Source: an uncultured Actinomycetes bacterium (lineage in GTDB: Bacteria; Actinomycetota; Coriobacteriia; Anaerosomatales; PHET01). Taken from it: a stretch of DNA of 64,000 nucleotides. This document shows positions 19,286 through 60,604 of the stretch, piece after piece (the stretch's first letter is position 1; each line of letters opens with the position of its first letter). The DNA lies in the NCBI GenBank assembly GCA_963770765.1, contig CAVYQS010000015.1, forward strand, positions 9,194 to 73,193, in the 5' to 3' direction. The position numbers were made by a program, and so were the translations under genes. The notes under the pieces were generated by a model that worked only from the letters and a program-made list of their open reading frames with translations, did not search any database and was not told the DNA's origin.

Positions 19286-19304
19286 CTCCTGCGAAACCGA
19301 ACAG

Positions 19305-43376: not shown

Positions 43377-43429
43377 GCAGCCCGAGGGCTCGATCGCTCT
43401 CGAAGCGGCCAGCCGGCGATCGTGAGAGC

Positions 43430-43515
43430 TGGTGCCCGGGGTGGGATTCGAACCCACACGAGGTTTCCCCCAGAGGTTTTTGAGACCTCCGTGTCTGCCA
43501 TTCCACCACCCGGGC
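43430..43515 (-). tRNA. tRNA-Leu (anticodon CAA), CCA encoded
   Basis: Reverse strand folds as follows. Acceptor GCCCGGG/CCCGGGC. D stem GUG/CAC. Anticodon stem GAGGU/ACCUC with loop CUCAAAA. Long variable arm. T arm GUGGG-UUCGAAU-CCCAC. Discriminator A plus CCA. 86 nt. Confidence 0.93.
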
Positions 43516-43589: not shown

Positions 43590-45008
43590 ATGGTCGCTGA
43601 ACTCCCTCACACAGGGCTCACGGACGAGGCTCGGACGCACCTCGGCAACGTCGCCGAGAACCTCCAGCTCATCGCCGACATGGCGTACGGAGACGTCGCG
43701 CTCGCGTACGCGCGCACCGATGGCACGCTCGAGGTGATCGCCGATGCGCGGCCCAACACGGCGCTTGCGCCCATCGCTGCGACGCGGGTGGGTACGGAAC
43801 TCGACGCCGCAGACGAGGTCGAGGCGTACGCCGCGCTGGCTTCCGGGCAGCCGGTCCAAGGCGAGGCCCGACGGGTGGCTCGCGGCATCAAGTACACGAC
43901 CACCGCCTATCCCCTCGAAGCGCCGGGCGCACCCGCGGTGATCGTCAAGGACCTTGCGGAGCAGGTGACGGCGGCACGAGGGTCCATGGAGACCGCTTTC
44001 ATGGATGCCGCCGAGGAGCTGCTCGACTCGCTGCGCCGAGCCCCGGTACTCGATGTCCGCGACGCTCAGCCGTTCTCGACGACGCGCCGCGCCGGTGACG
44101 GCGTGATGCGCGTGGGATCGACGGGCCAGATATCGTATGCCTCGCCCAACGCGGTCAACATCATGCGTCTTGCCGGTGTCGAAGGTGCCCTCACCGGCAT
44201 GCAGGCCTCGGCTCTGCCCGGAGGTGGCTTCGGCGTCGCGCCGGTGCTGGGCACCCGCGGCGCCGTCCGTGTCGAGACCGACGTCGCCGACCGCGTCTTG
44301 GGCTACCGGTCCATAGCGCTCGCGGCGGGCGCCCTCGTGCTCGTCGAGGACCTGACCGACGCCAAGCGCCGCGACGCCGAGATCAAGGTCAAAGAAGCCA
44401 CCATCCGAGAAGTGCACCACCGGGTGAAGAACAACCTGCAGACGATCGCGAGCCTCCTGCGCATCCAGGCGCGGCGAACCGACAGCGCCGAGGCCCGGCA
44501 TGCCTTGGCCGAGGCGACCGAGCGCGTGGCCTCGATGGCCGTCGTGCACGACCTGCTCGCCGGAAGCGACGAAGAGCTCGTCGACTTCGCCGAGGCGACG
44601 CGTACCGTGGTGGCGCTGGTGAGCCGAGGGCTGCTCGGAGAGCAGGCTGATGTGGCCGTGAACGTGAGCGGCAGTACGGGGAAGGTCGAGGCTCCCGTGG
44701 CGACCGCGTTGGCGCTGGCGGTGGCTGAACTCGTACACAACGCGATCGAGCACGGGATCGCCGGCCGCGACTCCGGTACGGTCGACGTCACGATGCGGCG
44801 CGTGCCCGGCGAACTGGTGCTCACGGTGCGCGACGACGGCGCCGGGCTGCCCGCCGGCTTCGACCCCGAAGGTTCGTCCAACCTGGGTCTTGAGATCGTG
44901 CGCACCGTCGTCGAGAAGGACCTGCGCGGCACCTTGGGTTTCTCGGTGGCCCGGGGTACCACCGTCACCGTGCGCGTGCCGGTTCCCGATGAGACTCCCG
45001 ATAGCTGA
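43590..45008 (+). CDS. pdtaS: PdtaS-type sensor histidine kinase (GAF/PAS N-terminus, HisKA_2-type H-box)
   Basis: H-box EVHHRVKNNLQTIASLL. N-box ELVHNAIEHG. DDGAGLP and GLEIV motifs. No TM segments. Followed by the ANTAR regulator. Confidence 0.8.
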   Translation: MVAELPHTGLTDEARTHLGNVAENLQLIADMAYGDVALAYARTDGTLEVIADARPNTALAPIAATRVGTELDAADEVEAYAALASGQPVQGEARRVARGIKYTTTAYPLEAPGAPAVIVKDLAEQVTAARGSMETAFMDAAEELLDSLRRAPVLDVRDAQPFSTTRRAGDGVMRVGSTGQISYASPNAVNIMRLAGVEGALTGMQASALPGGGFGVAPVLGTRGAVRVETDVADRVLGYRSIALAAGALVLVEDLTDAKRRDAEIKVKEATIREVHHRVKNNLQTIASLLRIQARRTDSAEARHALAEATERVASMAVVHDLLAGSDEELVDFAEATRTVVALVSRGLLGEQADVAVNVSGSTGKVEAPVATALALAVAELVHNAIEHGIAGRDSGTVDVTMRRVPGELVLTVRDDGAGLPAGFDPEGSSNLGLEIVRTVVEKDLRGTLGFSVARGTTVTVRVPVPDETPDS

Positions 45009-45024: not shown

Positions 45025-45600
45025 ATGCGCGTGCTGATCGCAGAAGACGAAGCCCTGATCCGGATGGATCTCAAGGAGATGCTCGAGGAGGAGGGCCACG
45101 AGGTCGTGGGCGAGGCACGCGATGGGGCCGAGGCGATCGAGCTCGCCCGCGAGCTACGCCCGGATGTGGTGTTCATGGACATCAACATGCCGGGTGTCGA
45201 CGGCATCGAGGCGGCTCGCACCGTGGGCGAGGAGCACCTCGCGCCCGTGGTGATGGTCACGGCGTTCTCGCAGGCCGGCTACGTGGAGCAGGCGAGCCAG
45301 GCCGGCGCGATGGCCTATGTGGTCAAGCCGTTCTCGCGAGCCGACGTCCTGCCGGCGATGCAGGTCGCCGTGTCCCGGTACGCCGAGACGAGCGCCCTGG
45401 CCAGCGAGGTGGCCGACCTCACAGAGCGGCTCGAGACGCGCAAGGTGCTCGATCGGGCGAAGGGGATCCTCATGGGCCGGGGGATGAGCGAGCCCGAGGC
45501 GTTCAAGCGGCTGCAGAAGCTGGCCATGGACAAGCGCAAACCACTCAGGGAGATCGCCGAAGCGGTCATCCTTGCGAGCGAAGCCGAAGAGCAGGCATGA
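45025..45600 (+). CDS. pdtaR: PdtaR-type response regulator with ANTAR RNA-binding output domain
   Basis: RVLIAEDEALIRMDL..DVVFMDINMPG..AMAYVVKPF receiver. ANTAR block LETRKVLDRAKGILM...SEPEAF..LQKLAMDKR. Confidence 0.88.
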   Translation: MRVLIAEDEALIRMDLKEMLEEEGHEVVGEARDGAEAIELARELRPDVVFMDINMPGVDGIEAARTVGEEHLAPVVMVTAFSQAGYVEQASQAGAMAYVVKPFSRADVLPAMQVAVSRYAETSALASEVADLTERLETRKVLDRAKGILMGRGMSEPEAFKRLQKLAMDKRKPLREIAEAVILASEAEEQA

Positions 45601-45681
45601 CCTAGAGGGTTGAGGGCAGAGGGGTTCATGGGCTAGAGTACTGAGGCAAGAGAACTCTCTTGACCTTGATTGAGGTGGCCC

Positions 45682-46134
45682 ATGGACTCTACCGACCTCG
45701 AGATACTCGACTCACTGGTCTTCGACGGGCGGATGACGTTCTCCGATCTTGCCGAGCGCATCGGGCTGTCCGGACCTTCGACCGCAGAGCGGGTGCGTAG
45801 GCTCGAGGCGACCGGCGTCATCAGCTCGTACACTGCCGTGCTCGACCCGGAGGCCGTGAGTGCCGAGCTCGCCGCGTTCGTCTCGGTCGCCTTGGAGGCG
45901 CCCACCGCCCGCGCCGCCTTTCTCGCTGCGGTAGCAGACGAGCCGTCCGTTCTCGAGGTGCATCACGTCGCGGGCGATGGTGACTACCTACTCAAGGTCC
46001 GCTGCGCGGGAACGCGCGACCTCGAGCGCATCGTGACCGAGCGCATCAAGGGCGTGCCCGGGGTCGCTCGCACCAGCACGACCGTCGTGCTCTCGACGCT
46101 GTTCGAGCGACCGGTGGGGGCGCCGCTCCGGTGA
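45682..46134 (+). CDS. Lrp/AsnC family transcriptional regulator
   Basis: HTH DLEILD.L..DGRMTFSDLAERIGLSGPSTAERVRRLE, plus an AsnC-type C-terminal domain. GAGGTGG RBS. Confidence 0.85.
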   Translation: MDSTDLEILDSLVFDGRMTFSDLAERIGLSGPSTAERVRRLEATGVISSYTAVLDPEAVSAELAAFVSVALEAPTARAAFLAAVADEPSVLEVHHVAGDGDYLLKVRCAGTRDLERIVTERIKGVPGVARTSTTVVLSTLFERPVGAPLR

Positions 46135-46752
46135 CCGGACTGCCGCTGTTCGCCCGCACGTTCCTGCTCGGAGTCCTGGTAGCGGCTCCCGTGGGTGCGA
46201 TGGGAGTGCTCTGCGTGCAGCGCACGCTGCAGCTCGGGTGGCGAGCCGGCTTCGCGACGGGGCTGGGTATCGCCACCGCCGACGCGATCTACGCGGGGTT
46301 CGCGGCGTTCGGGATCACGGCGGTCTCGTCGGTGTTCGTCGCATGGCAGGTCCCGCTCAGGCTGGTAGGCGGCGGGGTGCTGGTGTATCTGGGTGTGGCC
46401 TCGATGGTTCGCCGGTCACGAGATGCACCCTGTAACGCGGACGCCTCCGTTTCGCACGGCTCGCTATACGCGAGCTCGGTCGCTCTCACGCTCACCAACC
46501 CGCTGACGATCATGGCGTTTGGAGCCGTGTTCGCCGCTGCTGGGACTCACGGTGGCGCCTTCGGCTTCAACTGCCGCGCTGGCGACGCTTGGTGTCGGAG
46601 CCGGATCGCTTGCCTGGTGGGTCGCGCTGACCGGAGCAGTCCATGTGGCCCGACGCGGACTCGGGGGCGACGTGGTCGGCTGGGTCACGCGCCTCTCAGG
46701 GCTGTTCATCGCGGCCTTCGGAGTGATAGCCATCGTCTCGGTGGCGTTCTGA
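46131..46752 (+). pseudogene. LysE/RhtB family amino-acid exporter, frame broken at about 46536
   Basis: ORF 46131..46772 is hydrophobic LysE-like up to ..NPLTIMAFGAVFA. The TM pattern then continues in ORF 46519..46752 (LLGLTVAPSAS..GSLAWWVALTG..LFIAAFGVIAIV). Overlaps the Lrp stop. Confidence 0.7.
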
Positions 46753-46887
46753 CTGCCTCGTATGGCCCCTGATCGCCACGCCACTTGCCGAAGCAGCGCG
46801 TCAGATAGGTCTCAGTACGCCGCTTTGGTGGTACCTCACACCTGTGGGCGCTGTGGGGGCGCCTCTCAGAGGTGAGGAGGTTCGTCG

Positions 46888-47911: not shown

Positions 47912-47958
47912 GCGGTGCCCTCCGTGTTTCGCCCGTGTTTCCCTGCCCGGTCCAGCCG

Positions 47959-47967
47959 TGGTATACT
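47959..47967 (+). promoter_or_regulatory. Extended -10 promoter element TGgTATACT for the hdr/glt operon
   Basis: TGGTATACT at 47959-47967, about 125 nt upstream of ATG 48094. Confidence 0.4.
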
Positions 47968-48014
47968 GCCCGCCACGACACGAGGGTGTGTCGAAACCAA
48001 GAGATGAGCAATGG

Positions 48015-48060
48015 CGCTCGTTTCGGCCCCAAGAGGCCGAGGCGGGCGTTTTTCGTTTCT
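48015..48060 (+). terminator. Leader terminator/attenuator upstream of the HdrBC-like gene
   Basis: 14-bp stem CGCUCGUUUCGGCC / GGCCGAGGCGGGCG (3 G-U pairs), loop CCAAGA, then UUUUUCGUUUCU. Lies 34 nt before the start codon. Competing pairing is possible between CGAAAC 47992-47997 and GUUUCG 48020-48025. Confidence 0.65.
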
Positions 48061-48093: not shown

Positions 48094-49449
48094 ATGAAGG
48101 AGTTCGCGGTCTTCTGGGGGTGCACGATCCCCGCGCGGTTCCCGTTCATCGAGAAGTCGGTGCGCGTGATGTTCGACGACCTGGGCGCTCAGATCCACGA
48201 GCTTCCGGGGCACACGTGCTGCCCCGAAGGCACGCTGGTCAAGGCGAACGATCCCGACTCGTTCTTCACCGCCGCCGCCCGCAACCTGGCGCTGGTGGAG
48301 AAGGCCGGACTTGACGTCGTGACTCCGTGCAACGGCTGCTACTCGACGTTCAAAGAGGCCCAAAGCCACCTCAAGACCCACTGGCGCGAGCGCGACACGA
48401 TCAACGACCGTCTCGCCACCGAAGACCTGCACTACGACGGCTCGCTGCAGGTCGTCCACTTCGCCGAGTGGCTCTCGGACCATATGGGCCCGGGGTTGAT
48501 CGCGAGCAAGGCGGTCAAGCAGTTCTGGGGCATGAACATCGCCGTTCACTACGGCTGTCATCTGCTTCGCCCTCAGCCCGCGGTGAAGTGGGACGATCCG
48601 CTGCACCCGACCAAGGTGGAGGGCATCGTCGCCGCTCTGGGCGCCCGGGTGGTCGACTATCCCACCAAGATGCAGTGTTGTGGCGGCTATCTCGACCGCG
48701 TGGGGGAGCGTGAGGGTTCGCTGGCCTTCAACCGCCGCAAGCTCTACGACCTGCAGAACCACGGGGTCGATGCGCTCGTGGTCGTGTGTCCCAGCTGCTT
48801 CCAGCAGTTCGACCTCAACCAAGCTGCACTCCAGCGCGCCAACGAGCCCATCAACATCCCGGTGCTCTACCTCTCCGAGCTCATCGGCCTGGCCTACGGG
48901 CACAGCCCCGAGGAGCTGGGCATGGACATGCACCGGGTGAGCGTGAAGCCGTTCCTCGAGAAGTGGGAGGGGCGCAGCGCCGAGAAGACCCGCCTGGCGC
49001 AGGACTTCGACGTGTCGCTCCTCAACAAGTGCGACTCATGCCGCGCGTGCAAGGACGACTGCCCGGTGTGCAAGGTCGACCCGACGTACGACCCGTGCGA
49101 CATGATCGGACGGCTCGTCGACGGCGACATCGACGAGGTGCTCGCCGACCCCAACATCTGGAAGTGCCTCGAGTGCTACACGTGCCTCGAGATGTGCCAC
49201 AGCGACATCGGCATGGCCGAGACGTTCCGCAAGCTCAAGGAGCTCTCGCTCGCATCGGGCAGTGGTCCCGAATCGGTGCCGGCCGCCTACAAGACGTTCA
49301 TGGAGACCGGCACCCTCGGCAAGCCCAAAGAGGGTGCGCGCAAGAAGCTCGGTCTCAGCCCACTCCCGCCGTCGGGAGGTGACGCGGTCCAGCGACTCAT
49401 GGGCTGCGACGCCGTGATCGCGGCATGTGACATCGAAGGCGAGGACTAG
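48094..49449 (+). CDS. Heterodisulfide-reductase-like HdrB (two CCG domains) fused to an HdrC-like 2x[4Fe-4S] domain
   Basis: CCG motifs GHTCCPEG..PCNGC and KMQCCGGY..CPSCFQQF. C-terminal CDSCRACKDDCP and CLECYTCLEMC clusters. AGGAAGG RBS. Confidence 0.75.
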   Translation: MKEFAVFWGCTIPARFPFIEKSVRVMFDDLGAQIHELPGHTCCPEGTLVKANDPDSFFTAAARNLALVEKAGLDVVTPCNGCYSTFKEAQSHLKTHWRERDTINDRLATEDLHYDGSLQVVHFAEWLSDHMGPGLIASKAVKQFWGMNIAVHYGCHLLRPQPAVKWDDPLHPTKVEGIVAALGARVVDYPTKMQCCGGYLDRVGEREGSLAFNRRKLYDLQNHGVDALVVVCPSCFQQFDLNQAALQRANEPINIPVLYLSELIGLAYGHSPEELGMDMHRVSVKPFLEKWEGRSAEKTRLAQDFDVSLLNKCDSCRACKDDCPVCKVDPTYDPCDMIGRLVDGDIDEVLADPNIWKCLECYTCLEMCHSDIGMAETFRKLKELSLASGSGPESVPAAYKTFMETGTLGKPKEGARKKLGLSPLPPSGGDAVQRLMGCDAVIAACDIEGED

Positions 49450-49451
49450 AG

Positions 49452-50729
49452 ATGGCGTACGAACCGCTTCTTGAGCGGATGCCCACCACCCGGCCCGCGG
49501 GCTTCTCGGATCGAGAGAACGTCTTCGACCTCGAGCGTCCGGCCTACCGCGAGGAGTCGCCGTTCAAGATCCACGGAGGCTGCGGCCTCATGGGCATCTG
49601 CGACCAGTCGGGCACGCTGATGAGCGGCGAGAACGCCATCAGGGCCATGGCTGTCCAGCGCGACCGGGGCAACGGCCTGGGCGGCGGGTACGCGGGCTAT
49701 GGCATCTATCCGGAGTTCCCCGACCATTTCTGCTTCCACATGATGTATCACGACGTGAAGGCCAAAGAAGAGGCCGAGGCCGTCTTCGACCGCTACTTCA
49801 CCGTCGATCTCGCCGAGCCCATGCCCACGCGTGCGGTCAAGGGCATCAGCGACGCTCCGCTGCTGTGGCGCTACTTCCTGAAGCCCGACCCCCACAAGCT
49901 CGAGAACTCCGAGATGAGCGGCGAGGATTACGTCGTCCACATGGTCATGCTCGTGAACTCGACCATCGACGGGGCCTTCGTCGCATCGAGCGGCAAGAAC
50001 ATGGGCGCGTTCAAGGGCGTGGGATTCCCCGAGGAGATCGGCCACTACTACCTGCTCGAGGAGTACGAGGGGCACACGTGGGTGGGCCACAACCGCTTCC
50101 CTACGAACACCCCCGGCTGGTGGGGTGGCGCACACCCGTTCACGCTGCTCGACTGGTCGATCGTGCACAACGGCGAGATCTCGAGCTACGGGATCAACAG
50201 CCGGTACCTCGAGGCGTTCGGCTACAAGTGCACGCTGGGCACCGATACCGAGGTGGCGGCGTACCTGTTCGACCTCATGCTGCGCCGCCACAAGTTGCCG
50301 CTGGGACTTGCCTGCAAGGCGCTGGCGAGCCCGTTGTGGACCGAGATCGACCGCATGCCCGAAGATGAGCAGGCCGTCATGCGCAGCCTGCGCGCCGTCT
50401 ACGGCCCGGGCATGCTCAACGGCCCGTTCGCCATCGTGCTCGGCTTCAACGGCGGCATGGTCGCCCTGAACGACCGCATCAAGCTGAGGCCCCTCGTGGC
50501 CGCCAAGCAGGGTTCGATCCTGATGGTCGCCTCCGAGGAGAGTGCGATGCGCGAGGTGCTCGAGTCGCCCGACGAGGTCTGGGCGCCCAAGGCCGGCGAG
50601 CCCGTCATCGCGCGGATCGAGGGCGTCGACTGGCCCATCCACGGCGACCTGCACCTTGCTCCCAGTGAGATCTCCTGTGCCGTGACCGGTGTCGATGACA
50701 CCTGCGAGACGACCGTCGAGGTGAGCTGA
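49452..50729 (+). CDS. Glutamate synthase amidotransferase subunit (class II/Ntn GATase domain, archaeal split type)
   Basis: GGCGLMGICD nucleophile Cys after an about 42-aa leader. GHNRFPTNT..WGGAHPF..HNGEISSYG motifs. Confidence 0.8.
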   Translation: MAYEPLLERMPTTRPAGFSDRENVFDLERPAYREESPFKIHGGCGLMGICDQSGTLMSGENAIRAMAVQRDRGNGLGGGYAGYGIYPEFPDHFCFHMMYHDVKAKEEAEAVFDRYFTVDLAEPMPTRAVKGISDAPLLWRYFLKPDPHKLENSEMSGEDYVVHMVMLVNSTIDGAFVASSGKNMGAFKGVGFPEEIGHYYLLEEYEGHTWVGHNRFPTNTPGWWGGAHPFTLLDWSIVHNGEISSYGINSRYLEAFGYKCTLGTDTEVAAYLFDLMLRRHKLPLGLACKALASPLWTEIDRMPEDEQAVMRSLRAVYGPGMLNGPFAIVLGFNGGMVALNDRIKLRPLVAAKQGSILMVASEESAMREVLESPDEVWAPKAGEPVIARIEGVDWPIHGDLHLAPSEISCAVTGVDDTCETTVEVS

Positions 50730-50732
50730 CCT

Positions 50733-52245
50733 ATGCCCACGAGCCTTATCCAGCCCGAGTTCAAGGTCGAGATCGACTACAACAAGTGCCACAAGTGCGG
50801 CCGCTGCGTCCAGCAGTGCGGCTGGGGCGTGTACTCGTTCAACGAGCGCCCGTTCCCCGATGACAGCAAGTGCCGCGCATGCCACCGCTGCGTGACGTAC
50901 TGCCCGGCGCACTGCATCACCATCAAGAAGAACGAACTCGCCTTGCGTGAGAACGCCAACTGGACTTCCGAGCAGCGCAAGAACGTGTGGCGCCAGGCCG
51001 AGTCGGGCGGCGTCATGCTCACCGGCATGGGCAACGACAAGAAGTATCTCAACTACTTCGACCATCTGGTTCTTGACGCATGCCAGGTCACGAACCCGTC
51101 GATCGACCCGCTGCGCGAGCCCATGGAGCTGCGCACGTATCTGGGGCGCAAGCCCGACAGCGTCGAGGTCGAAACCGACGGCAACGGAGGCTACCGTCTC
51201 AAAGAGGGCGCCGGCATCCACAAGAACATCAAGCTCGACACGCCCATCATCTTCTCGCCGATGAGCTACGGCTCGGTATCGCTCAACGTCCACAAGTCCC
51301 TCGCGATGGCAGCCGAGCGTCTCGGCATCCTCATGAACACCGGCGAGGGCGGGCTGCACGCCGATCTGTATCCCTATCAGGACAACGTGATCGTCCAGGT
51401 CGCTTCGGGCCGATTCGGCGTCAACCCCGAGTACCTCAACCGCGGTGCGGCCATCGAGATCAAGGTCGGTCAGGGCGCCAAGCCCGGCATCGGCGGTCAC
51501 CTTCCCGGGCGAGAAGATCAACAAGGAAGTCTCGACCACGCGGATGATCCCTCAGGGCTCCGACGCGATCAGCCCGGCGCCTCACCACGACATCTACTCG
51601 ATCGAGGACCTGCGCCAGCTCATCTACTCGCTCAAGGAGGCGTCCGGCTACAAGCCGGTTGGCGTCAAGATCGCCGCAGTGCACAACGTAGCGGCCATCG
51701 CGAGCGGGATCGTGCGTGCGGGCGCCGACTACGTCTATCTCGACGGTTTCAAGGGCGGCACCGGGGCGGCACCGGCGATCATCCGCGACCATATCGGCAT
51801 CCCGCTCGAGATCGCGATCGCGGTCGTCGACCAGCGGCTGCGCGACGAAGGTATCCGCAATCAGGCCTCGATCATCGCCGCAGGTTCGATCCGCTCGTCG
51901 GCCGACATGGCCAAGGCCATCGCGCTGGGGGCCGACGTCGTTGCGATCGGATCGGCGTCGCTCATGGCGCTGGGCTGCCACCTGTGCCAAGGCTGCCATA
52001 CAGGCTGCTGCTCGTGGGGCCTCACCACCCAGAAGCCCGAGCTCACGCGCCGCGTCGACCCCGAGTGGGGCGCCGAGCGGCTCGTGAACCTGGTCAACGC
52101 GTGGAGCCACGAGCTGCAGGAGATACTCGGAGCTCTGGGTGTGAACGCCGTTGAGTCGCTCCGCGGCAGCCGCGAGCGCCTCCGCGCCGTGGGGCTCGAC
52201 CAGCAGACCTGCGAGATCCTCGGCGTCAAGCCGGCCGGGCTGTAA
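50733..52245 (+). pseudogene. Glutamate synthase FMN/synthase subunit with N-terminal 2x[4Fe-4S] ferredoxin domain, frame broken at about 51510
   Basis: CHKCGRCVQQC / CRACHRCVTYCP, then ..IEIKVGQGAKPGIGGHLPG in ORF 50733... Continues EKINKEVSTTRMIPQGSDAISPAPHHDIYSIEDL..LDGFKGGTGAAP..GSASLMALGC in ORF 51445..52245. Junction: ccc ggg C gag aag. Confidence 0.82.
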
Positions 52246-52257
52246 GGGAGAAGCGAG

Positions 52258-53076
52258 ATGACGACTGCGACCACCTCCGGCCCGATCGAGGGCTACCTAC
52301 AGATCGAGCCCGTCGCCACCAGCGACGGTGAGACGGCGACCATCGACTGTCAGAGCATCTACTACAAGTACGTGAACCAAGCGGTTCGGGACTGCTTCTC
52401 GAGCGGCGTCAAGACCGTCAAGCTCGTCAACGTGAACGGTCAGCGCTACATCGGCACGGGCATCAAGGGCACGGACCTGCGCATCGAGGTGCACGGCACG
52501 CCGGGCCAGGACATGGCGATGTTCATGGACGGGCCCACGCTCGAGGTCTGGGGCAACGCCCAAGACGGTGTGGGAAACACGATGAACGCCGGCACGGTGA
52601 TCGTCCACGGCGGCGCCGGCGACGTGCTCGGCTACGGGATGCGCGGCGGCAAGGTGTTCATCAAAGGCGACGTGGGCTACCGCGTGGGAATCCACATGAA
52701 GGCCTACGAGGACCTGCGGCCCATCATGATCTGCGGCGGCAAGGCTCGCGACTTCTTCGGCGAGTACATGGCCGGCGGACTGCTCGTCTTGCTGGGGCTG
52801 GAGTCGCGTCTCGAGGGCCCGCTCGTGGGCGGCTATGTGGGAACCGGCATGCACGGCGGGGAGATATTCCTGCGCGGCGAGGTCGAGCCGTGGCAGGTGG
52901 GCAAGGAGTGCGGCATCTTCACCGCCACCGATGAGGAGATGGCCGCGCTCAAGCCATTGCTCGCCGAGTACTGCGACGCGGTCGGCTTCGATCTCGAGAC
53001 CGTCATGGCCGAGAAGTTCACCCGACTCGTGCCGATCAGCCACCGGCCGTACGGGAAGCTGTACACGTACCTCTAG
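52258..53076 (+). CDS. Glutamate synthase GXGXG-domain subunit (large-subunit C-terminal domain)
   Basis: Repeated G-x-G beta-helix motifs: VHGTPGQDMAMFMDG..VWGNAQDGVGNTMNAG..VHGGAGDVLGYGMRGG..IKGDVGYRVG. Confidence 0.82.
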   Translation: MTTATTSGPIEGYLQIEPVATSDGETATIDCQSIYYKYVNQAVRDCFSSGVKTVKLVNVNGQRYIGTGIKGTDLRIEVHGTPGQDMAMFMDGPTLEVWGNAQDGVGNTMNAGTVIVHGGAGDVLGYGMRGGKVFIKGDVGYRVGIHMKAYEDLRPIMICGGKARDFFGEYMAGGLLVLLGLESRLEGPLVGGYVGTGMHGGEIFLRGEVEPWQVGKECGIFTATDEEMAALKPLLAEYCDAVGFDLETVMAEKFTRLVPISHRPYGKLYTYL

Positions 53077-53156
53077 AGTGCGACGGCGGAAGCTGTCGTC
53101 AGATGCATCGAACCCACGGGGCGGGCGCACAAGCGCTCGCCCCGTACTCGTCCCCC

Positions 53157-53179
53157 GAAACCCGAAACACCTCAGAAAC
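53157..53179 (+). promoter_or_regulatory. Three direct GAAAC repeats upstream of glnA (GlnR-box-like half sites)
   Basis: GAAAC at 53157, 53164 and 53175. Downstream are TGACGT-N6-ACGTCA (53205-53222) and TATCAT -10 (53245-53250). Confidence 0.3.
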
Positions 53180-53272
53180 ATAGGGCGGGCTAGGCTTGCT
53201 GTGATGACGTAAGTAGACGTCACGCCGCACGGCTCGTGTGCTCGTATCATCTTTCGAAAGGGAGGCTCTCGT

Positions 53273-54604
53273 ATGGCACCTGCGTTCGATAAGGACTACG
53301 TCCTCAAGACGGTAGAGGAGCGCGACGTCAAGTTCATCCGCTTCTGGTTCACCGACGTCCTCGGCGTCATGAAGTCGTTCGCTGTGACCGACTCCGAGCT
53401 CGAAGGTGCGTTCGAAGAGGGCATGGGTTTCGACGGCTCCTCGATCGACGGCTTCACCCGCATCCAGGAGTCGGACATGGTCGCGTTCCCGGACGCCGCC
53501 ACGTTCCAGCTTCTCCCGTGGCGTCCCGAAGAGCAGGGCGTCGGCCGCATCTTCGCCGACATCACGACTCCCGACGGCAAGCCGTTCGTCGGTGATCCTC
53601 GCTACGCACTCAAGCGCATGCTCAAGAAGGCCGCCGACATGGGCTACACCATGTACGTTGGCCCTGAACTCGAGTTCTTCTACTTCGCCGATGACCAGGG
53701 CACCGAGCTTCTTGACCGCGGTGGCTACTTCGACCTCACTCCGCTGGACTTGGCGAGCGACCTTCGTCGCGAGACCGTGCTGACCCTCGAGAAGATGGGT
53801 ATCCCGGTCGAGTACTCGCATCACGAGGTCGCTCCGTCGCAGCACGAGATCGACCTGCGCTACCAAGAGGCCCTCACCATGGCCGATGCGGTCATGACCT
53901 ACCGCCTCGTCGTCAAAGAGACCGCGATGGCCAATGGCGTGTACGCCACGTTCATGCCCAAGCCCATCGCAGGGATGAACGGCTCGGGCATGCACACGCA
54001 CCAGTCGCTGTTCACCAAGGACGGCAACGCGTTCTACGATGCCGACAAGCCCGGCTACCTCAGCGACATCTGCCGCCACTACATCGCCGGCCTGCTCAAG
54101 TACGCCCCCGAGTTCTGCGCGGTGACCAACCCGCTCGTCAACTCGTACAAGCGCCTGGTCCCGGGCTTCGAGGCCCCGACCTACGTCTCGTGGGCGCAGG
54201 CCAACCGCTCGGCGATGGTTCGCGTGCCGCTCTACAAGCCCGGCAAGGAGGCCGCGACCCGCATCGAGCTGCGTTCGCCCGACCCCTCGTGCAACCCGTA
54301 CCTCGCCTTCGCCGTCATGCTGGGCGCCGGTCTCAAGGGTATCGAGGAGAAGCTCGAGCTCATGCCCGAGGCCACCAACGACATCTTCGAGATGACCGCC
54401 GAGGAGCTTGCTGCTGCGGGAATCGGCACGCTGCCGCGTGACCTCGGCGAGGCTATCGAGCTGTTCGAGAAGTCCGAGACGATGAAGGAGATCCTCGGCG
54501 ACCACATCCACACCTTCTACAGCGAGAACAAGAAGGCCGAGTGGCTCGACTACATCAAGGATGTCTCCGAGTGGGAGCTCAACCGCTATCTGAGCGTCAT
54601 CTAG
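53273..54604 (+). CDS. glnA: Glutamine synthetase, type I
   Basis: FIRFWFTDVLG..GFDGSSI..GPELEFF..HHEVAPSQHEID..MPKP..GSGMHTHQS..NSYKRLVPG.EAP..R.P.. motifs. GGGAGG RBS. Confidence 0.95.
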   Translation: MAPAFDKDYVLKTVEERDVKFIRFWFTDVLGVMKSFAVTDSELEGAFEEGMGFDGSSIDGFTRIQESDMVAFPDAATFQLLPWRPEEQGVGRIFADITTPDGKPFVGDPRYALKRMLKKAADMGYTMYVGPELEFFYFADDQGTELLDRGGYFDLTPLDLASDLRRETVLTLEKMGIPVEYSHHEVAPSQHEIDLRYQEALTMADAVMTYRLVVKETAMANGVYATFMPKPIAGMNGSGMHTHQSLFTKDGNAFYDADKPGYLSDICRHYIAGLLKYAPEFCAVTNPLVNSYKRLVPGFEAPTYVSWAQANRSAMVRVPLYKPGKEAATRIELRSPDPSCNPYLAFAVMLGAGLKGIEEKLELMPEATNDIFEMTAEELAAAGIGTLPRDLGEAIELFEKSETMKEILGDHIHTFYSENKKAEWLDYIKDVSEWELNRYLSVI

Positions 54605-54634
54605 CAGTTCGGTCTCGTACCGAATGAACGGCAA

Positions 54635-54667
54635 CGACGCCGGGCGAGGGTCCACCTCGTCCGGCGT
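54635..54667 (+). terminator. glnA terminator hairpin
   Basis: 14-bp stem GACGCCGGGCGAGG / CCTCGTCCGGCGTC (1 G-U pair), loop GTCCA, followed by GACGTTTCC. Confidence 0.65.
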
Positions 54668-54709
54668 CGACGTTTCCATCCGCCAGCCCATCGTCGGAGC
54701 GGTATCATC

Positions 54710-55381
54710 ATGCACATGAAAAGGGTTCTCATCGTCTCTGACGACGCACATACGCGAGCCTGGGTGGGTCAAGCGCTCAGCGGGCTCGATGTGCAGTACA
54801 CCGACGCAGGCATGACCGAGATGCAGAAGCGGCTGCTCGGCGGCGAGACCGACCTCGTGATCATCGACGGCGGCCGTAGCCCCGAGGTCCTCTCGCAGGT
54901 CGTCGAGCACGCGGCTGCGGGCGGTGTCGACCTGCGCATGATCGTCCTCGTCGAGCCTGAAGGGCTGCAGGGGCTGCGGCTCCCGGTGCGGGTTCCTTCC
55001 GACTTCATGGTTCGGGGAGGCTCGAGCGAAGAGATCGCCGTGCGCGTTCGCTCCATGCTGTGGCCCGGAGAAGAGGTGACGCGCCAGGAGCTGGTGCGCA
55101 TCGACGATCTCACGCTCAATCTCGCGACGTACCAGGCGTACAGTGACGGGACCCCGATAGACTTCACCTACCTCGAGTACGCGCTCTTCGCCTTCCTGGT
55201 CACTCATCCCGGGCGCACCTACAGCCGCGAGGTGCTGCTGCGGCGGGTGTGGGGCTCGGACTACTACGGTGGCTCGCGCACGGTCGACGTCCACATCCGT
55301 CGGATCCGCTCCAAGGTGGGGCACGAGCTGTCCCGTCGAATCGAGACGGTGCGCAACGTCGGTTACCTTTGGAACGGGTAG
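54710..55381 (+). CDS. glnR: OmpR/PhoB-family response regulator, GlnR-like (orphan, next to glnA)
   Basis: Winged-helix C-terminus FTYLEYALFAFLV.HPGRTYSREVLL..VWG.DYYGGSRTVDVHIRRIRSKVG..ETVRNVGY resembles my recollection of actinobacterial GlnR. No kinase gene is adjacent. Confidence 0.65.
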   Translation: MHMKRVLIVSDDAHTRAWVGQALSGLDVQYTDAGMTEMQKRLLGGETDLVIIDGGRSPEVLSQVVEHAAAGGVDLRMIVLVEPEGLQGLRLPVRVPSDFMVRGGSSEEIAVRVRSMLWPGEEVTRQELVRIDDLTLNLATYQAYSDGTPIDFTYLEYALFAFLVTHPGRTYSREVLLRRVWGSDYYGGSRTVDVHIRRIRSKVGHELSRRIETVRNVGYLWNG

Positions 55382-55526: not shown

Positions 55527-57719
55527 ATGGCGGGGCCGTATCGGTTGCATGTGGCGGTGGACCGGGGGCATGGGCCGGTCTATGTGCTGCTGCATGGGAT
55601 CAACTCCACCGGGCACGACTGGGACACGGTGGTCACAGCGATGGGATTCGACCGACGGTGTATCGCGGTCGATCAGCTCGGCTACGGGCGCTCCCCCAAG
55701 CCCCTCGACATCGAGTACACGCTCGATGAGCACGTCGAGTCTCTGCGGTACACCCTCCGCGACATCGGCGTCACGGAGCCGTTCGTACTCGTCGGGTACT
55801 CGATGGGTGGACCCATCGCGCTGCGATATGCGGCCACCTACCGTGAAGAAGTCGAACGCCTGGTGCTGATCAGCGCGCCGTTCTTCCTCAAGCCCGAGGA
55901 GATGGGAGACGAGGCGTACGCCAAGGCGGTCTTCCAGACCCAAGGCTCTCAGAAGATCATGAACATGGTTCGCAGTGCCGGGTTCGCCAAGTCGGGCGTG
56001 TTCAAGACGCTGTCGTCCGAGGACAAGCAGGTGATCCAGAACGTCATCAACGCCCAGGACCTGAAGACCGACTGGCAGATCCTCCAGAAGAACATCTACC
56101 AGGCCATTCAGGCGCCCGACTTCCCGACCGATCTGCGCCGGGTCAAGGCACCGATCACGTTCATGGTCGGGGAGCACGACACCTTCATCGTCCAGTCGCA
56201 GATCGAGACGCTGCGAACGGACCACGCGCCCAACATGGAGATCAGATTCCTCGCGGACCTCAAAGCCGATCACATGCTGCTCGAGAACGTGCCCACGATG
56301 ATGGCCGCCGAGATCACCCGGTGGGAGGATCGCCGACTCGCGGTCGCTCTGGATCGGGGCGAAGGCCACGTCATCGTGATGCTGCACGGCATCGAGAACG
56401 ACGGCTCGTTCTGGAACCAGGTCGGGGCCGCCCTTGCCACGCGGAACCGAGCGATCTCGCTCGATCTTCTCGGCTTCGGGCAGTCACCGCGCCCGCTGGA
56501 CATCCCCTACAGCGTCGACGACCAGGTCGCTTCGATCGGGGCGACGCTCGATTCGCTCCTGGGTGAAGACGCGACGTTCACGCTGGTGGGGCATTCACTG
56601 GGCGGTCTGGTCGCTGCGGGATACGCGCGCAGGCACCCCGAGCAGGTCGACCGGCTGGTCGTGTTCGCGCCGCCCATCAACAACGCGGACGTGAACGTGG
56701 GCGGCGCTCGGCTCGACCAGGCACGAGCGCTGTTCGTCGACAACTTCGGGACACTCCGGGAGCGGGGCGCCAAGCTCACTCGGCGCAGGGCGGTCAGAGG
56801 GGCGCTGGGTCACGAGCGGCTTTCGCGGTACGAGCCGTCGCTTCGTTCGCTCAAGAACGTCATCGAGTGTCAGACTCTCGCGCAGGATCTCGCGGCGACC
56901 GAGGGCATCCCTGCCACCGTCGTACACGGTACGCGCGACCCCTTTGTGGTTCCCGAGTATGTCCACGCGCTCGCGGAGCTGCGCCCGGGGATCGACGTCG
57001 TGACGGTGGACGCCGCGCACGACATCGCCACCGAGAAGCCCCTCGATGCCCTGGCTGCCATCGATCCCGAGATCGATCTCGAGGAGGCGGCGGTGATCGT
57101 CGAGAAGGCGAAGACCGATCGCAAGCTACGGCCGTCTGCGAACGCCTTCAAGGGGATGTTCGACTCCGATGCGCTTCTCGTCGGCTTCCGCGGACTTGTG
57201 TACCTGCTGTGGGGTCTGGGGCTGACGTTCCTGCCCAACTCGGGGGAGGCCACCTTGCTGAGGATCGGCTTCGCGGTCTTCCTGTTCGCCCGCTCATTGG
57301 CCGTCCTCACCGGGCTGTTCACCACGCGCAGCATCCGGCAAGAACGGCTCACGAGCGCGCTGATGGGCATCGTGGGGATCCTGCTGGGCGTGTTCCTCCT
57401 CATGGCCAGGGAGATCGCGATGCTCATCATCGCTCTGTGGGTCGTCGGGTACCTGATGCTCAGCGGCGTGGTCAATCTGTACGCGGCCTTCCACACGATG
57501 CACTCCAGCAAGCGTCGTCGCCGGCTGATGTTCGAGGGTGGGGGTGCTGTGCTCGCAGCGTCGCTGCTGCTCGCCGGGTCGGTTCTGGTCGCGCAGCTGA
57601 TCATCTTGTTCGTGGGCGTCATCGCGATCGCTTCCGGGGTCTCACTCATCAGCTACGCGCTCGTGGCACGAAAGGCGGGGTCGGTGTGGACGTCCGAGAT
57701 CGTCCCCGACCGCGTCTGA
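55527..57719 (+). CDS. Fusion protein: two tandem alpha/beta-hydrolase domains plus a C-terminal DUF308/HdeD-like multi-TM domain
   Basis: Domain 1: VLLHGINSTGHDW..GYSMGG. Domain 2: VMLHGIENDGSFW..GHSLGG. The last about 190 aa have 5-6 hydrophobic helices. TAGAAT -10 at about 55477. Confidence 0.7.
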   Translation: MAGPYRLHVAVDRGHGPVYVLLHGINSTGHDWDTVVTAMGFDRRCIAVDQLGYGRSPKPLDIEYTLDEHVESLRYTLRDIGVTEPFVLVGYSMGGPIALRYAATYREEVERLVLISAPFFLKPEEMGDEAYAKAVFQTQGSQKIMNMVRSAGFAKSGVFKTLSSEDKQVIQNVINAQDLKTDWQILQKNIYQAIQAPDFPTDLRRVKAPITFMVGEHDTFIVQSQIETLRTDHAPNMEIRFLADLKADHMLLENVPTMMAAEITRWEDRRLAVALDRGEGHVIVMLHGIENDGSFWNQVGAALATRNRAISLDLLGFGQSPRPLDIPYSVDDQVASIGATLDSLLGEDATFTLVGHSLGGLVAAGYARRHPEQVDRLVVFAPPINNADVNVGGARLDQARALFVDNFGTLRERGAKLTRRRAVRGALGHERLSRYEPSLRSLKNVIECQTLAQDLAATEGIPATVVHGTRDPFVVPEYVHALAELRPGIDVVTVDAAHDIATEKPLDALAAIDPEIDLEEAAVIVEKAKTDRKLRPSANAFKGMFDSDALLVGFRGLVYLLWGLGLTFLPNSGEATLLRIGFAVFLFARSLAVLTGLFTTRSIRQERLTSALMGIVGILLGVFLLMAREIAMLIIALWVVGYLMLSGVVNLYAAFHTMHSSKRRRRLMFEGGGAVLAASLLLAGSVLVAQLIILFVGVIAIASGVSLISYALVARKAGSVWTSEIVPDRV

Positions 57720-57834: not shown

Positions 57835-60604
57835 ATGGCCCCGCGCACTGTCGCCGTGATCGACGGCAACTCACTGATGCACCGGGCGTTCCACGCGCTG
57901 CCGGAGACGATGACCGCGCCCGACGGGCGGCCCACGAATGCCGCGTTCGGCTTCCTGTCGATGCTCGTCAAGCTCGTGGGAGACGTGAACCCCGATGGCG
58001 TGGTGGTCGCTTTCGATCGCGGCAAGCCGGCGTTCCGCATCGAGGCGCTCGCCCAGTACAAGGTGCATCGTCCGCCCACGGCCGAGGGGCTGCGTACGCA
58101 GTTTCCCATGGTCAAGGAGCTGCTCGAGGCGATGGAGGTGCCCATCGTCGAACTCGATGGGTGGGAGGGCGATGACATCCTGGGGACGCTGGCGGTGCGC
58201 GGCGCCGAGAAGGGCCTGCGCGTGCTGCTGGTGACCGGCGATCGCGACGCGTTCCAGCTGGTGAACGACAGCGTCACCGTGGTCACGACACGCAAGGGCA
58301 TCACCGATATCGCATTCATGGGCCCCGACGACGTGCTCGAGCGCTACGGCATCACCCCGGCGCAGGTCCCCGACTATCTCGGCTTGAAGGGCGACACCAG
58401 CGACAACATACCCGGCGTCCCCGGAGTGGGGGAGAAGACCGCCGCGAAGTTGCTCCAGGAGCACGGCAGCCTGGAAGCGGTCCTTGAGGCGGCCAAGGCC
58501 GGTCGGGTCAAAGGAAAGGTCGGGGAGAACCTCGTCGCTCACGAGGGTGCGGCGCTGGCCTCCCGGGTCGTGGCCACGATCGTGTGCGACGTGCCGGTCG
58601 ACATCGACCTCGAAGGGGTGGTGTTCGGCACGTGGGACGATGCCCGGCTCGCGCGGGCCTTCGGTGAGCTGCGCTTCACTTCGCTTCTCGAGCGGGCGCT
58701 GGCATTGCGGGCGTCTGCGGGGGGCGCCGGAGGCGCGGCACCTGCGCCGGCCGGTGCTCGCGGAGTGGCCAGCGCCGGAGGCGCTGACCACGCCTCTCGC
58801 AGGGCCGGCTTCGGCACCACGCCTCCGGCGCCCGAAGCTCGCGATGCGGCAGCTGGGAGCTTGAGCGCGGCTTGTGCGGAGCTTGGGTGCGTTGCGGGGA
58901 CAGAGGGGCTTGCGGCAGGTTCGCGAGTGGGTTGCGGCGGAGAGCGAGTGGCTCGGGGTGGCATTCGGTTCGGCGGGGGACACGCTGTTCGCCGAGACGC
59001 GCGACATGGCTGTTGCCGGGCCCACGGCGGTGGCGATCGTCGACGGCGAACAGGTCGACGACGTGCTGGCGGGACTGTTTGCCGGTGGTCGGGTCGCCGC
59101 GGCAGACACGAAGGCGCTGTTGCAGGAGCTGTGCCCGCCCGATGAGGCGCTCCCCTGCACGGCCGCTGCACTCGACGCCGATCCCGCTCGGCTCTTCGAC
59201 GTCGCCCTCGCGGCCTACCTGCTCGAGTCGAACCGCTCGAGCTACGAGCTTTCGGGCCTGCACGCAGACTACCTCGGCGCTCCGCTGCCCGCGACGCGGG
59301 ACGATCGACCTGACGCCGTGGTGAACGCGCAGGCGACCGCGGAACTCGCCGTCGAGCTCGAAGCGCGGCTCACGGCCGACGGCTCGATCGGGGTTCTGCG
59401 CGACATCGAGATGCCGCTCGTACCCGTGCTGGCGCGTATGGAGCGTGTGGGCGTGGGCGTGGACACCGCGGTACTCGCCGATCTCGCTGTTGAGACCCGC
59501 GAGAGCATCGACGCGTTGCGTGCAGAGATCCACGAGTTGGCCGGAGTGGAGTTCACCATCGACTCGCCCAAGCAGCTCTCGGAGGTTCTGTTCGACCGTC
59601 TCGGACTGCCGCCGGGAAAGCGCACGAAGACGGGCTACTCGACCGACGCCAGCGTGCTCGCCAACCTCACCTCCATCCACCCGATCGCCGAGAAGATCGT
59701 GAGTTACCGCGAGCTCACGAAGCTCACGAGCACCTACATCGAAGCGCTGCCCCGGATGCTCGGTGACGACGGGCGACTCCACACGAGTTTCAATCAGACG
59801 GTGGCAGCGACCGGCCGTCTGTCCTCCAGTAACCCGAACCTGCAGAACATCCCCGTGCGCACCGAGTTCGGCCGTCGGATCAGAGCGGCGTTCGTGCCCG
59901 CGACCGTCGGCGACGTCATGGTCTCGGCGGACTACAGCCAGATCGAACTACGGATCCTCGCTCACCTGTCACAAGACGCGGGGCTCATCGAGGCGTTCAC
60001 CAGCGGCGCTGACTTCCATGCCGCCACCGCTGCGCGCGTCTTCGGAGTCGAGGTCGACCACGTCGAGCCGGGCATGCGTGCGAAGGCGAAGGCGGTCAAC
60101 TTCGGCATCGTCTACGGGCAGACGGCGCACGGGCTGGGCACGACGCTCAAGATCCCCAACGCCGAGGCGCAAGCCATGATCGACCGCTACTACGCGGCTT
60201 ACCCACGGGTCCGCGCGTACCTCGACGAGATGGTGGCGCAGGCTCACCGCGACGGGTGGTCGGAGACGATGTTCGGACGCAAGCGGCGCATCCCCGAACT
60301 GAAGAGCAGCAACTTCAACCTGAGGTCATTCGGCGAGCGCACGGCCATGAACCATCCCATGCAGGGAAGTGCGGCCGATATCATCAAACTCGCGATGCTC
60401 GAGGTGGATCGCCGGCTTCGGGCCGAGGGGTTCGCGTCGCGGATGGTGCTCCAAGTCCACGACGAGCTGGTCTTCGAGGCACCGGCCGGAGAGGTGGAAC
60501 GCCTTTCGGTGATGGTGGTCAGCGCCATGAGCGGCGTGGCCGATCTTGCGGTGCCGCTCGATGTCGGCGTCGCCAGCGGTGCGAACTGGGCACTCGCGAA
60601 GTAG
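57835..60604 (+). pseudogene. polA: DNA polymerase I, frame broken in the inter-domain linker (about 58865-58915)
   Basis: 5' nuclease domain (IDGNSLMHRAFHAL..GWEGDDILGTLA..GDRDAFQL..GDTSDNIPGVPGVGEKTA) in ORF 57835..59145. The exo-like and polymerase domains (..RLHTSFNQTVAATGRLSSSNPNLQNIP..DYSQIELR..QVHDELVFE) are in ORF 58874..60604. Confidence 0.85.

Follow-up and report, generated by a model that had tools for sequence, protein, structure and literature searches.

We analyzed a 64-kb stretch of DNA (hereafter the window; G+C ~67%) from an uncultured Coriobacteriia-like actinobacterium, in which a fusion of the heterodisulfide reductase (Hdr) subunits HdrB and HdrC is encoded directly upstream of a split, archaeal-type glutamate synthase (GOGAT). 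The same linkage was found in every informative locus of related and distant genomes, in both Bacteria and Archaea, and judged from this gene context the fusion protein (HdrBC, gene hdrBC) is very likely a functional subunit or partner of the split GOGAT. By a narrower margin of confidence, we lean toward a more specific reading in which the four genes encode one enzyme, with HdrBC as a fourth, electron-input subunit through which thiol oxidation would feed GOGAT. The enzyme core, an archaeal-type split GOGAT, is known; what is new is the proposed HdrBC electron-input module outside the context of HdrABC.

Gene content of the cluster

Six co-directional genes, all on the + strand, occupy positions 48094-55381 of the window:

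48094-49449, + strand: HdrB-HdrC fusion, 451 aa; two PF02754 CCG domains (E 1e-28), then a 2x[4Fe-4S] region
49452-50729, + strand: class-II (N-terminal nucleophile, Ntn) glutamine amidotransferase subunit, 425 aa; PF00310 at 31.7 bits (cut-off 19.9)
50733-52245, + strand: synthase subunit with two Fer4 motifs and PF01645; 503 aa if a 1-nt insertion is read through
52258-53076, + strand: GXGXG (beta-helix) subunit, 272 aa; PF01493, 1.6e-30
53273-54604, + strand: glnA, type I glutamine synthetase, 443 aa, by Pfam and by TIGR00653 (514 bits; cut-off 429)
54710-55381, + strand: orphan OmpR-family regulator, GlnR-like, 223 aa; Trans_reg_C, 5e-23

The first four genes are separated by gaps of 2, 3 and 12 nt, as had been reported (2-12 nt) in an initial annotation made from the sequence, and the next two gaps measure 196 and 105 nt. 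The class-II amidotransferase, the flavin mononucleotide (FMN) synthase (PF01645) and the GXGXG domain (PF01493) are carried on separate polypeptides, the arrangement that defines archaeal-type split GOGAT. In this respect the initial annotation was right about the content of the three genes (amidotransferase, ferredoxin-FMN and GXGXG) but missed that the FMN gene is frameshifted as assembled. Its placement of glnA and an orphan GlnR-like regulator downstream was borne out, TIGR00653 being passed and the best solved relatives of the regulator being GlnR proteins.

The HdrB-HdrC fusion protein

The assignment of the first gene was supported by both sequence and predicted structure. With a profile of 25 family members, residues 4-294 matched solved HdrB (E 7e-104; 8RVU, 5ODC, 7BKB) and residues 308-430 matched solved HdrC (E 2e-24; 5odc_C); identity to HdrB was 36-38%. 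The HdrB part carries two CCG motifs with the spacings CX31CCX35CXXC and CX39CCX35CXXC (cysteines C10/C42/C43/C79/C82 and C155/C195/C196/C232/C235), and the HdrC part carries two CX2CX2CX3C motifs of [4Fe-4S] type (C313/316/319/323 and C358/361/364/368). All 10 CCG cysteines and all 8 ferredoxin-type cysteines were invariant in alignments of 25 and 40 members at 30-90% identity. An AlphaFold model of the protein had a mean predicted local distance difference test score (pLDDT) of 90.5, and a Foldseek comparison with the HdrB of 8RWN/5ODC gave a template modeling (TM) score of 0.92 and a root-mean-square deviation of 2.0 A, with a TM score of about 0.57-0.60 for the C-terminal part against HdrC. 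The protein is a genuine HdrB-HdrC fusion by sequence and fold, not just any CCG protein, and the early description of an HdrB with two CCG motifs fused to an HdrC-like domain is matched by the two Pfam CCG domains and by solved HdrB and HdrC alike.

Compared with the methanogen HdrABC complex (5ODC, 8RVU, 7BKB), the fold, both CCG motifs and both CX2CX2CX3C motifs are the same, but the window protein fuses B then C, scores below the equivalog cut-offs, lacks accompanying HdrA, MvhD and hydrogenase genes and has GOGAT as its constant neighbor. Its scores were 259 and 118 bits against HdrB cut-offs of 345 and 450 (TIGR03288 and NF041780) and 49 against the HdrC cut-off of 160 (TIGR03290). No HdrA, MvhD or HdrE gene was detected in the window or in relatives' loci with called genes, and no HdrA, MvhD or Flx gene in any locus examined. 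To our knowledge, the bacteria that carry the fusion are not known to make coenzyme M (CoM) or coenzyme B (CoB). The domain order, CCG-CCG followed by Fer4, corresponds to B then C and departs from that of HdrD, DsrK and GlcF, in which Fer4 precedes CCG-CCG. A quinone-linked CCG protein of the SdhE/GlpC kind was rejected, as there is no membrane subunit and the sequence is much closer to HdrB.

A further comparison is offered by TfrAB, the thiol:fumarate reductase of Methanothermobacter, whose CCG subunit takes electrons from thiols and passes them to a flavoenzyme for an anabolic reduction. The logic proposed here is the same, but the TfrB model NF004898 was matched only weakly (E 4e-18; 65 bits against a cut-off of 385) and the flavoenzyme of TfrAB is a fumarate reductase, not a GOGAT.

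The HdrBC family is large, with 1528 matches below 1e-10 in a word-indexed search and ~35 full-length clusters at the 50% identity level, and its members, where named at source, are called 'heterodisulfide reductase subunit B' or 'Hdr-related iron-sulfur binding cluster'. Three database proteins that appeared to be natural HdrBC-GOGAT domain fusions (P0169, P0154 and P0215) proved to be out-of-frame translations of frameshifted assemblies.

Subunits of the split GOGAT

The synthase subunit begins with a 2x[4Fe-4S] ferredoxin domain (C19/22/25/29 and C47/50/53/57; Fer4 families, 1.7e-8), a domain that no solved structure spans. Homology to solved GltS alpha subunits spans residues 173-492 (E 7e-65), the cluster-binding loop included. 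In the window synthase this loop (51990-52030, residues ~420-433) reads GCHLCQGCHTGCC, that is CX2CX2CX3CC, whereas the aligned loop of canonical GltS has three cysteines in the pattern CX5CX4C, which we take to be the ligands of the [3Fe-4S] cluster. The cysteine pattern of the window loop suggests a [4Fe-4S] rather than a [3Fe-4S] center beside FMN.

In the amidotransferase subunit, a GGCGLMG motif is present and the candidate nucleophile is Cys44, which could act as an N-terminal nucleophile after removal of a 43-residue propeptide. Amidotransferases from Coriobacteriia-type and archaeal loci are 400-439 aa long, compared to 360-377 aa in Clostridia-type loci, which suggests that the longer proteins carry a long propeptide or an added N-terminal segment. 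None of the three GOGAT-like subunits reached an NCBIfam equivalog cut-off.

Compared with GltBD and ferredoxin-GOGAT (1EA0, 7MFM, 1LLW), the FMN/2-oxoglutarate domain is homologous and the overall chemistry presumably alike, but the alpha subunit is split in three, a ferredoxin domain is added, the cluster loop is changed as described and GltD is missing. Some archaeal-type and clostridial/Thermotoga-type split GOGAT clusters have no additional redox gene, and in those of Thermotoga and Clostridium thermocellum we take the equivalent position to be filled by a pyridine-nucleotide oxidoreductase and a small 4Fe-4S protein; the extra gene of the window, in contrast to archaeal-type and clostridial/Thermotoga-type split GOGAT clusters, is the HdrB-HdrC fusion, joined in some Clostridia by a dihydrolipoamide dehydrogenase-like flavoprotein (E3) and a lipoyl protein. 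The C. thermocellum cluster (Clo1313_2032-2036) shares with the window its separate amidotransferase, ferredoxin-FMN and GXGXG polypeptides and its lack of GltD; its activity was never measured and its ferredoxin dependence was only assumed (PMC9888227).

Conservation of the linkage

To follow the linkage across genomes, one genome per GTDB species was scanned with a four-sequence alignment as query. The best 80 of 572 relatives, at 64-94% identity, were all uncultured Coriobacteriia-like metagenome-assembled genomes (MAGs), and two metagenome contigs brought the set to 82 loci. The amidotransferase gene lay directly after hdrBC in 79 of these, the contigs of the other three ending inside hdrBC, and the FMN and GXGXG genes followed wherever the contig continued. 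At 31-46% identity, hdrBC also adjoined GOGAT genes in 10 of 10 distant loci from Bacteria and Archaea. Adjacency, which the initial annotation had singled out as a check on its proposal, was thus kept in 79/79 informative Coriobacteriia-like loci and in all the distant ones, a total of 89/89.

The distant loci are diverse. Four are of Thermoplasmata/Methanomassiliicoccales type (L084, L086, L088 and L089, of which L086 and L089 were grouped by their similarity to L084 and L088), and in L084 only the amidotransferase adjoins hdrBC. Three are of Clostridia/Eubacteriales type (L083, L087 and L090), and two are low-GC contigs with the same adjacency (L091 and L092). The remaining bacterial contig, L085, has amtB and P-II genes upstream and glnA downstream of the cluster. 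The one metagenome scan, for which a Clostridia-type member served as query, returned two loci only.

Four gene orders were observed: hdrBC-amidotransferase-FMN-GXGXG, as in the window; GXGXG-E3-lipoyl-hdrBC-amidotransferase-FMN; amidotransferase-FMN-GXGXG-E3-lplA-lipA-lipoyl-hdrBC; and amidotransferase-FMN-GXGXG-hdrBC. Where genes were called, hdrBC and the amidotransferase gene lay 2-7 nt apart or shared 4-8 nt, with stop and start codons often overlapping. In the 60 loci that have the complete four-gene set, HdrBC and the GOGAT subunits varied together in their identity to the window proteins (Spearman 0.87-0.90), compared to 0.95 between two GOGAT subunits in the same analysis, a pattern expected of subunits of one enzyme. 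Metatranscriptome contigs of relatives, 150-450 nt long, covered all four genes, none being shown to span a gene junction.

A regulator gene of the AsnC/Lrp family lies directly 5' of hdrBC in the four Thermoplasmata/Methanomassiliicoccales-type loci (about 7500-7970), and one is also present in the window at 45670-46134, 2 kb 5' of hdrBC. In archaea, AsnC/Lrp may act as an amino-acid-responsive regulator of the same operon.

Candidate electron donors

No GltD is encoded in the window, as initially claimed: Pfam scans of ~48 open reading frames (ORFs) across the 64 kb gave neither Pyr_redox_2 nor Fer4_20, and a tblastn search with E. coli GltD returned no match in the window at a threshold as loose as E<=10, nor any at E<1e-3 across 80 related loci (+-10 kb). 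The window also lacks any gene for E3, a lipoyl protein or another pyridine-nucleotide oxidoreductase, and no E3 or lipoyl-protein homolog was detected in the flanks of the 80 Coriobacteriia-like relatives. In the window organism, the donor is not encoded locally.

A different picture was found in the three Clostridia-type loci, where an E3-like gene and a small lipoyl-protein gene lie directly beside hdrBC. The E3-like flavoprotein (457-458 aa) has Pyr_redox_2 and Pyr_redox_dim domains and the redox-disulfide motif GGTCLNRGCIPTK, and the small lipoyl protein (77-85 aa) has a Biotin_lipoyl domain with a conserved ..TSKA.. lysine. In L087, genes for an LplA-type lipoate-protein ligase and a lipoyl synthase are inserted between the two. 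An E3/lipoyl module inside the cluster points to dithiol chemistry at the CCG module, and the simplest reading of these loci is a chain running from NAD(P)H to E3, the lipoyl protein, HdrB, HdrC, the ferredoxin domain of GOGAT and finally FMN.

There is a precedent for such an association in sulfur oxidation by sHdr-LbpA, in which the genes of an Hdr-like complex are linked to those for a small lipoate-binding protein and for dedicated lipoate attachment (PMC6067878). This pattern recurs in L083, L087 and L090, but sHdr includes HdrA and serves sulfur oxidation, while the Hdr-GOGAT loci have no HdrA, have GOGAT as partner and, in the case of the window, have no lipoyl genes.

The small lipoyl-protein family as a whole has 413 members in Bacillota, Omnitrophica, Hydrogenedentota and others. 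On one Omnitrophica contig (L095, 6021-8240), a trio of E3, LplA-type ligase and small lipoyl-protein genes occurs without hdrBC or GOGAT, flanked on one side by genes for aconitase, isocitrate dehydrogenase and malate/lactate dehydrogenase and on the other by one for an aminotransferase. This setting hints at further partners of the lipoyl module in glutamate-related metabolism.

Proposed electron path and alternatives

The gene linkage suggests that a thiol, and not NADPH or free ferredoxin, supplies GOGAT with electrons. In the mechanism that we favor, a dithiol would be oxidized in the HdrB part, at its two CCG-bound non-cubane [4Fe-4S] clusters, and the electrons would then move singly along two [4Fe-4S] clusters in the fused HdrC part and two more in the synthase's N-terminal ferredoxin domain, reaching FMN by way of the cluster beside it. 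FMN would reduce 2-iminoglutarate, which arises from 2-oxoglutarate and the ammonia that the amidotransferase subunit sets free. The cofactors of the predicted chain would number two non-cubane, two HdrC-type, two ferredoxin-domain and one near-flavin cluster, plus FMN. The dithiol itself may differ between lineages. In some Clostridia it would most likely be the dedicated small lipoyl protein, reduced by the cluster-encoded, NAD(P)H-dependent E3-like flavoprotein, and CoM-SH/CoB-SH could take this role in methanogen relatives.

The midpoint for reductive amination of 2-oxoglutarate is near -0.13 V and shifts to about -0.06 V if glutamine hydrolysis drives the reaction, and thiol couples lie at -0.14 to -0.29 V. 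Because the effective midpoint of GOGAT is well above those of thiol couples, thiol-driven GOGAT is thermodynamically reasonable. Complex formation, thiol oxidation and the direction of flow, like the binding of proteins to the cis-elements described below, are our interpretation of the gene content, cofactor motifs, fold, and conservation of linkage and regulatory elements observed here. The initial annotation had proposed HdrBC as the electron-entry module of this GOGAT, and the conserved linkage, the lack of a local GltD and the E3/lipoyl loci now support that proposal.

Several observations weigh against thiol-fed electron input through HdrBC. First, the support for a complex comes from genomic context only. 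Second, neither the window nor the flanks of the 80 Coriobacteriia-like relatives, the archaeal loci or L085, L091 and L092 contain E3 or lipoyl genes, and a gltD or a ferredoxin-dependent route could be encoded elsewhere in the genome. Third, the lipoyl module is not specific to Hdr-GOGAT, because three independent members of its family (from Desulfolucanica, Hydrogenedentota and Omnitrophica) have neither hdrBC nor GOGAT within 8 kb; it is a portable reductant module recruited by some Clostridia, neither dedicated to nor defining for Hdr-GOGAT. Fourth, conserved CCG cysteines do not prove disulfide chemistry, because the CCG proteins SdhE, GlpC, GlcF and LutA act without thiols. Fifth, Hdr is not obligatory for the split GOGAT class, because archaeal GOGATs without an Hdr partner also have the ferredoxin domain in their synthase. 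Lastly, the window assembly carries a frameshift in the synthase gene.

The alternative that fares best, though we consider it unlikely, accepts HdrB-HdrC as a GOGAT subunit but makes it only an Fe-S wire or docking module, with electrons coming from reduced ferredoxin or from some other redox protein whose gene lies elsewhere, for instance a partner of the HdrA/MvhD/Flx type, and with no thiol oxidation at the CCG sites. The linkage evidence serves this explanation equally well, the surroundings of the operon in Coriobacteriia and archaea contain no thiol-related gene, and several CCG proteins are known for plain electron transfer to quinone or other acceptors. Next to a synthase that already has its own 2x[4Fe-4S] ferredoxin domain, however, four more clusters acting as a wire would be redundant; the closest relative is the true disulfide-reducing HdrB (36-38% identity, TM 0.92), E3 and lipoyl-protein genes adjoin hdrBC in three loci, and the HdrA, MvhD or Flx partner that might feed a wire was not found in the loci examined. 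The ferredoxin link of the related C. thermocellum split GOGAT, which would favor a wire, is assumed and its donor was never shown (PMC9888227).

An improbable alternative is that electrons flow in reverse, with glutamate oxidation reducing a disulfide, or that the CCG module is a regulatory thiol-redox sensor gating GOGAT. HdrB normally reduces a disulfide, the direction of flow is not fixed by sequence, and anoxic, amino-acid-rich settings such as those of wetland, sediment and bioreactor metagenomes are the source of many relatives. The surroundings of the cluster are nonetheless those of assimilation (glnA, the GlnR-like regulator, amtB, P-II, and control by a GlnR-box and ANTAR element), the glutamine amidotransferase subunit, which would have no role in glutamate oxidation, is always present, and glutamate oxidation coupled to thiol formation would be strongly uphill.

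Still less probable is that the three GOGAT-like proteins form a related enzyme served by the Hdr module, either MgsABC-like or an amidotransferase acting on another 2-oxo acid. Three-subunit GOGAT-like enzymes with other functions do exist, and the sub-cut-off NCBIfam scores of all three subunits leave room for one here, but the synthase domain aligns full length with solved GltS alpha subunits, the neighbors include glnA, the GlnR-like regulator, amtB and P-II, and no methylamine-pathway genes lie nearby. An enzyme like N-methylglutamate synthase was rejected specifically: the ferredoxin domain and Hdr module point to a reaction with net electron transfer, something MgsABC does not require, and the neighbors are those of nitrogen assimilation. 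That hdrBC is an independent gene lying upstream by chance can hardly be credited, given its adjacency in all 89 informative loci across Bacteria and Archaea in four gene orders, the overlapping stop and start codons, the single leader before hdrBC and the absence of a terminator between the genes.

If thiol-fed electron input through HdrBC is correct, a broader but more doubtful extension is a fourth, thiol-dependent class of GOGAT next to those that depend on NADPH, NADH and ferredoxin, in which HdrBC oxidizes a dithiol that would be supplied by the lipoyl protein and E3 in Clostridia, by CoM-SH/CoB-SH in methanogen relatives and by another thiol in Coriobacteriia. The electron donor of split (archaeal-type) GOGAT is an old open point, for which the Hdr-GOGAT family offers a concrete candidate donor module and the three Clostridia-type loci a complete candidate chain of NAD(P)H, E3, lipoyl protein, HdrBC and GOGAT. 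Thiol-dependent GOGAT would represent a new physiological use of Hdr-type non-cubane clusters, and possibly of protein-bound lipoate, would wire nitrogen assimilation directly to the cellular thiol/lipoate redox pool and would extend the lipoate electron shuttle beyond 2-oxoacid dehydrogenases, glycine cleavage and sulfur oxidation. There is also a consequence for annotation, since the label 'heterodisulfide reductase subunit B' on such genes in hundreds of Coriobacteriia, Clostridia and Thermoplasmata MAGs could be misread as a marker of energy conservation or of methanogen-type metabolism, while their genomic context indicates nitrogen assimilation. No characterized Hdr-GOGAT coupling was known to the initial annotation, and our search of the literature linking Hdr, HdrB, CCG, lipoyl or LbpA with glutamate synthase found none, subscription-only papers being outside its scope.

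Regulatory elements

Candidate regulatory genes and cis-elements were found upstream of hdrBC and of glnA:

43590-45008, + strand: PdtaS-type sensor histidine kinase (Pfam GAF_PdtaS, HisKA_2, HATPase_c), 5' of hdrBC in most relatives
45025-45600, + strand: PdtaR-type response regulator with ANTAR output domain (Pfam Response_reg 6e-30, ANTAR 9e-22)
47926-47941, + strand: GTTTC-n6-GTTTC direct repeat, GlnR-box-like, just 5' of a -10-like TATACT (47962-47967)
47976-47993, + strand: leader hairpin P1, CGACAC[GAGGGU]GUGUCG, with a hexanucleotide loop
48005-48020, + strand: leader hairpin P2, UGAGC[AAUGGC]GCUCG, loop A1/G4, its 3' arm overlapping the 5' arm of the terminator
48013-48059, + strand: intrinsic terminator in the leader, a 16-bp stem (48013-48050) and U-run
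53164-53179, + strand: GAAAC-n6-GAAAC repeat, GlnR-box-like, 5' of glnA, with a third GAAAC at 53157-53161

The 130-nt leader of hdrBC thus holds, in order, the -10-like box, P1, P2 and the terminator. We compared 77 distinct leaders of relatives. P1 was found in 70 of them in 21 stem variants, compared to 17% of shuffled controls, and its loop had A1/G4 in 54/70 relatives against 1.4% of shuffles; the P2 loop had A1/G4 in 75/77 leaders. In an unconstrained alignment, RNAalifold recovered both P1 and the terminator, and compensatory changes were seen in 9 of 15 pairs; for P1, the figure was 5 of 6 pairs. No Rfam family matched the leader. An ANTAR regulator gene lay within 10 kb 5' of hdrBC in 61/82 related loci (directly 5' in L001), and the three Clostridia-type clusters likewise feature ANTAR genes, dual A1/G4 hairpins with a U-run ahead of the first gene, or both.

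ANTAR antiterminators are defined by two hexaloop hairpins with A1/G4, the second of which competes with a terminator, and have been described before glutamate synthase genes in Desulfotomaculum (PMC3369931). The leader shows the dual hexaloop hairpins, the overlap with the terminator and the nearby ANTAR gene, but loop 1 of the window, GAGGGU, has G at position 1 instead of A. Judged by these features, it is probably an ANTAR dual-hairpin antiterminator, served by the upstream PdtaS/PdtaR pair.

The second set of elements is shared by the two promoters. GTTTC-n6-GTTTC and its reverse complement GAAAC-n6-GAAAC occur only twice in the 64 kb. With at most one mismatch, the repeat 5' of hdrBC was kept in 54/80 relatives (background 0.016 per 250 nt) and that 5' of glnA in 35/37 (background 0.011 per 250 nt). 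The regulator encoded after glnA, which follows it in 30 related loci, had GlnR as its best solved relatives (8hih, 8hig, 8hml; 5e-26 to 3e-24, compared to 1e-17 for PhoB); it gave no Response_reg match in Pfam at E<=0.01, and no kinase gene adjoins it. 8HIH and 8HML are structures of actinobacterial GlnR, whose box is gTnAc-n6-GaAAC (PMC10235972). The window resembles that system in its orphan OmpR-type regulator and in GAAAC repeats at 11-nt spacing, but its box is GAAAC-n6-GAAAC and stands in opposite orientation at the two promoters. 'GlnR-like orphan regulator' seems a fair label, and we infer that this protein binds the GAAAC repeats. The GlnR-box-like repeat common to hdrBC and glnA, together with the ANTAR antiterminator in the leader, would tie expression to nitrogen status.

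A G+C-rich hairpin without a U-run lies at 53117-53146, between the stop codon of the GXGXG gene and the glnA box. This hairpin, unlisted by the consensus scan, may terminate the four-gene operon.

Frameshift in the synthase gene

As assembled, the synthase gene is broken by one extra base in the run CTTCCCGGGCGAG (~51505-51510), which splits it into ORFs at 50733-52154 and 51445-52245; the frame is lost after GGHLPG and resumes one frame over. The extra base had no counterpart in 63/63 aligned relatives, whose synthase gene is continuous at 503 codons. Two further genes of the window are frameshifted in comparison with relatives: polA (57835-60604), the two halves of which share one frame in L008 but not in the window, and lysE (46131-46772), whose translation agrees with relatives only to residue ~138. 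Taken together, the three frameshifts point to indel errors typical of long-read assembly, and out-of-frame translations of the same kind were present among database matches from similar assemblies. Because relatives lack the extra base and polA and lysE are also frameshifted, the synthase frameshift is most probably an assembly error, and a true pseudogene is disfavored. The best DNA sequencing runs held only 10% of the words, and the same strain is not on record.

Other features of the window

Housekeeping genes of the window (dnaE, a his operon, a T-box-led trp operon, accA, pfk, uvrD, polA and rpsA) are those of a Coriobacteriia-like actinobacterium. Between the GlnR-like gene and polA, a 730-aa protein (55527-57719, + strand) has two tandem alpha/beta-hydrolase domains and a hydrophobic C-terminal region. 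The T-box leader (19304-19581, + strand; Rfam RF00230, 97.5 bits) lies directly 5' of the trp operon, which consists of trpE (19648-21387), trpG-D, trpC, trpB, trpF, a second PALP gene and trpA. A single 584-aa ORF at 4012-5766 (+ strand) encodes an MFS transporter domain joined to a Trp-repressor domain at the C-terminus (PF01371, 4e-24) and is either an unusual fusion or an assembly artifact. Just 5' of pdtaS, a tRNA-Leu (CAA) gene (43430-43515, - strand) is overlapped by a spurious long ORF starting at 43422.

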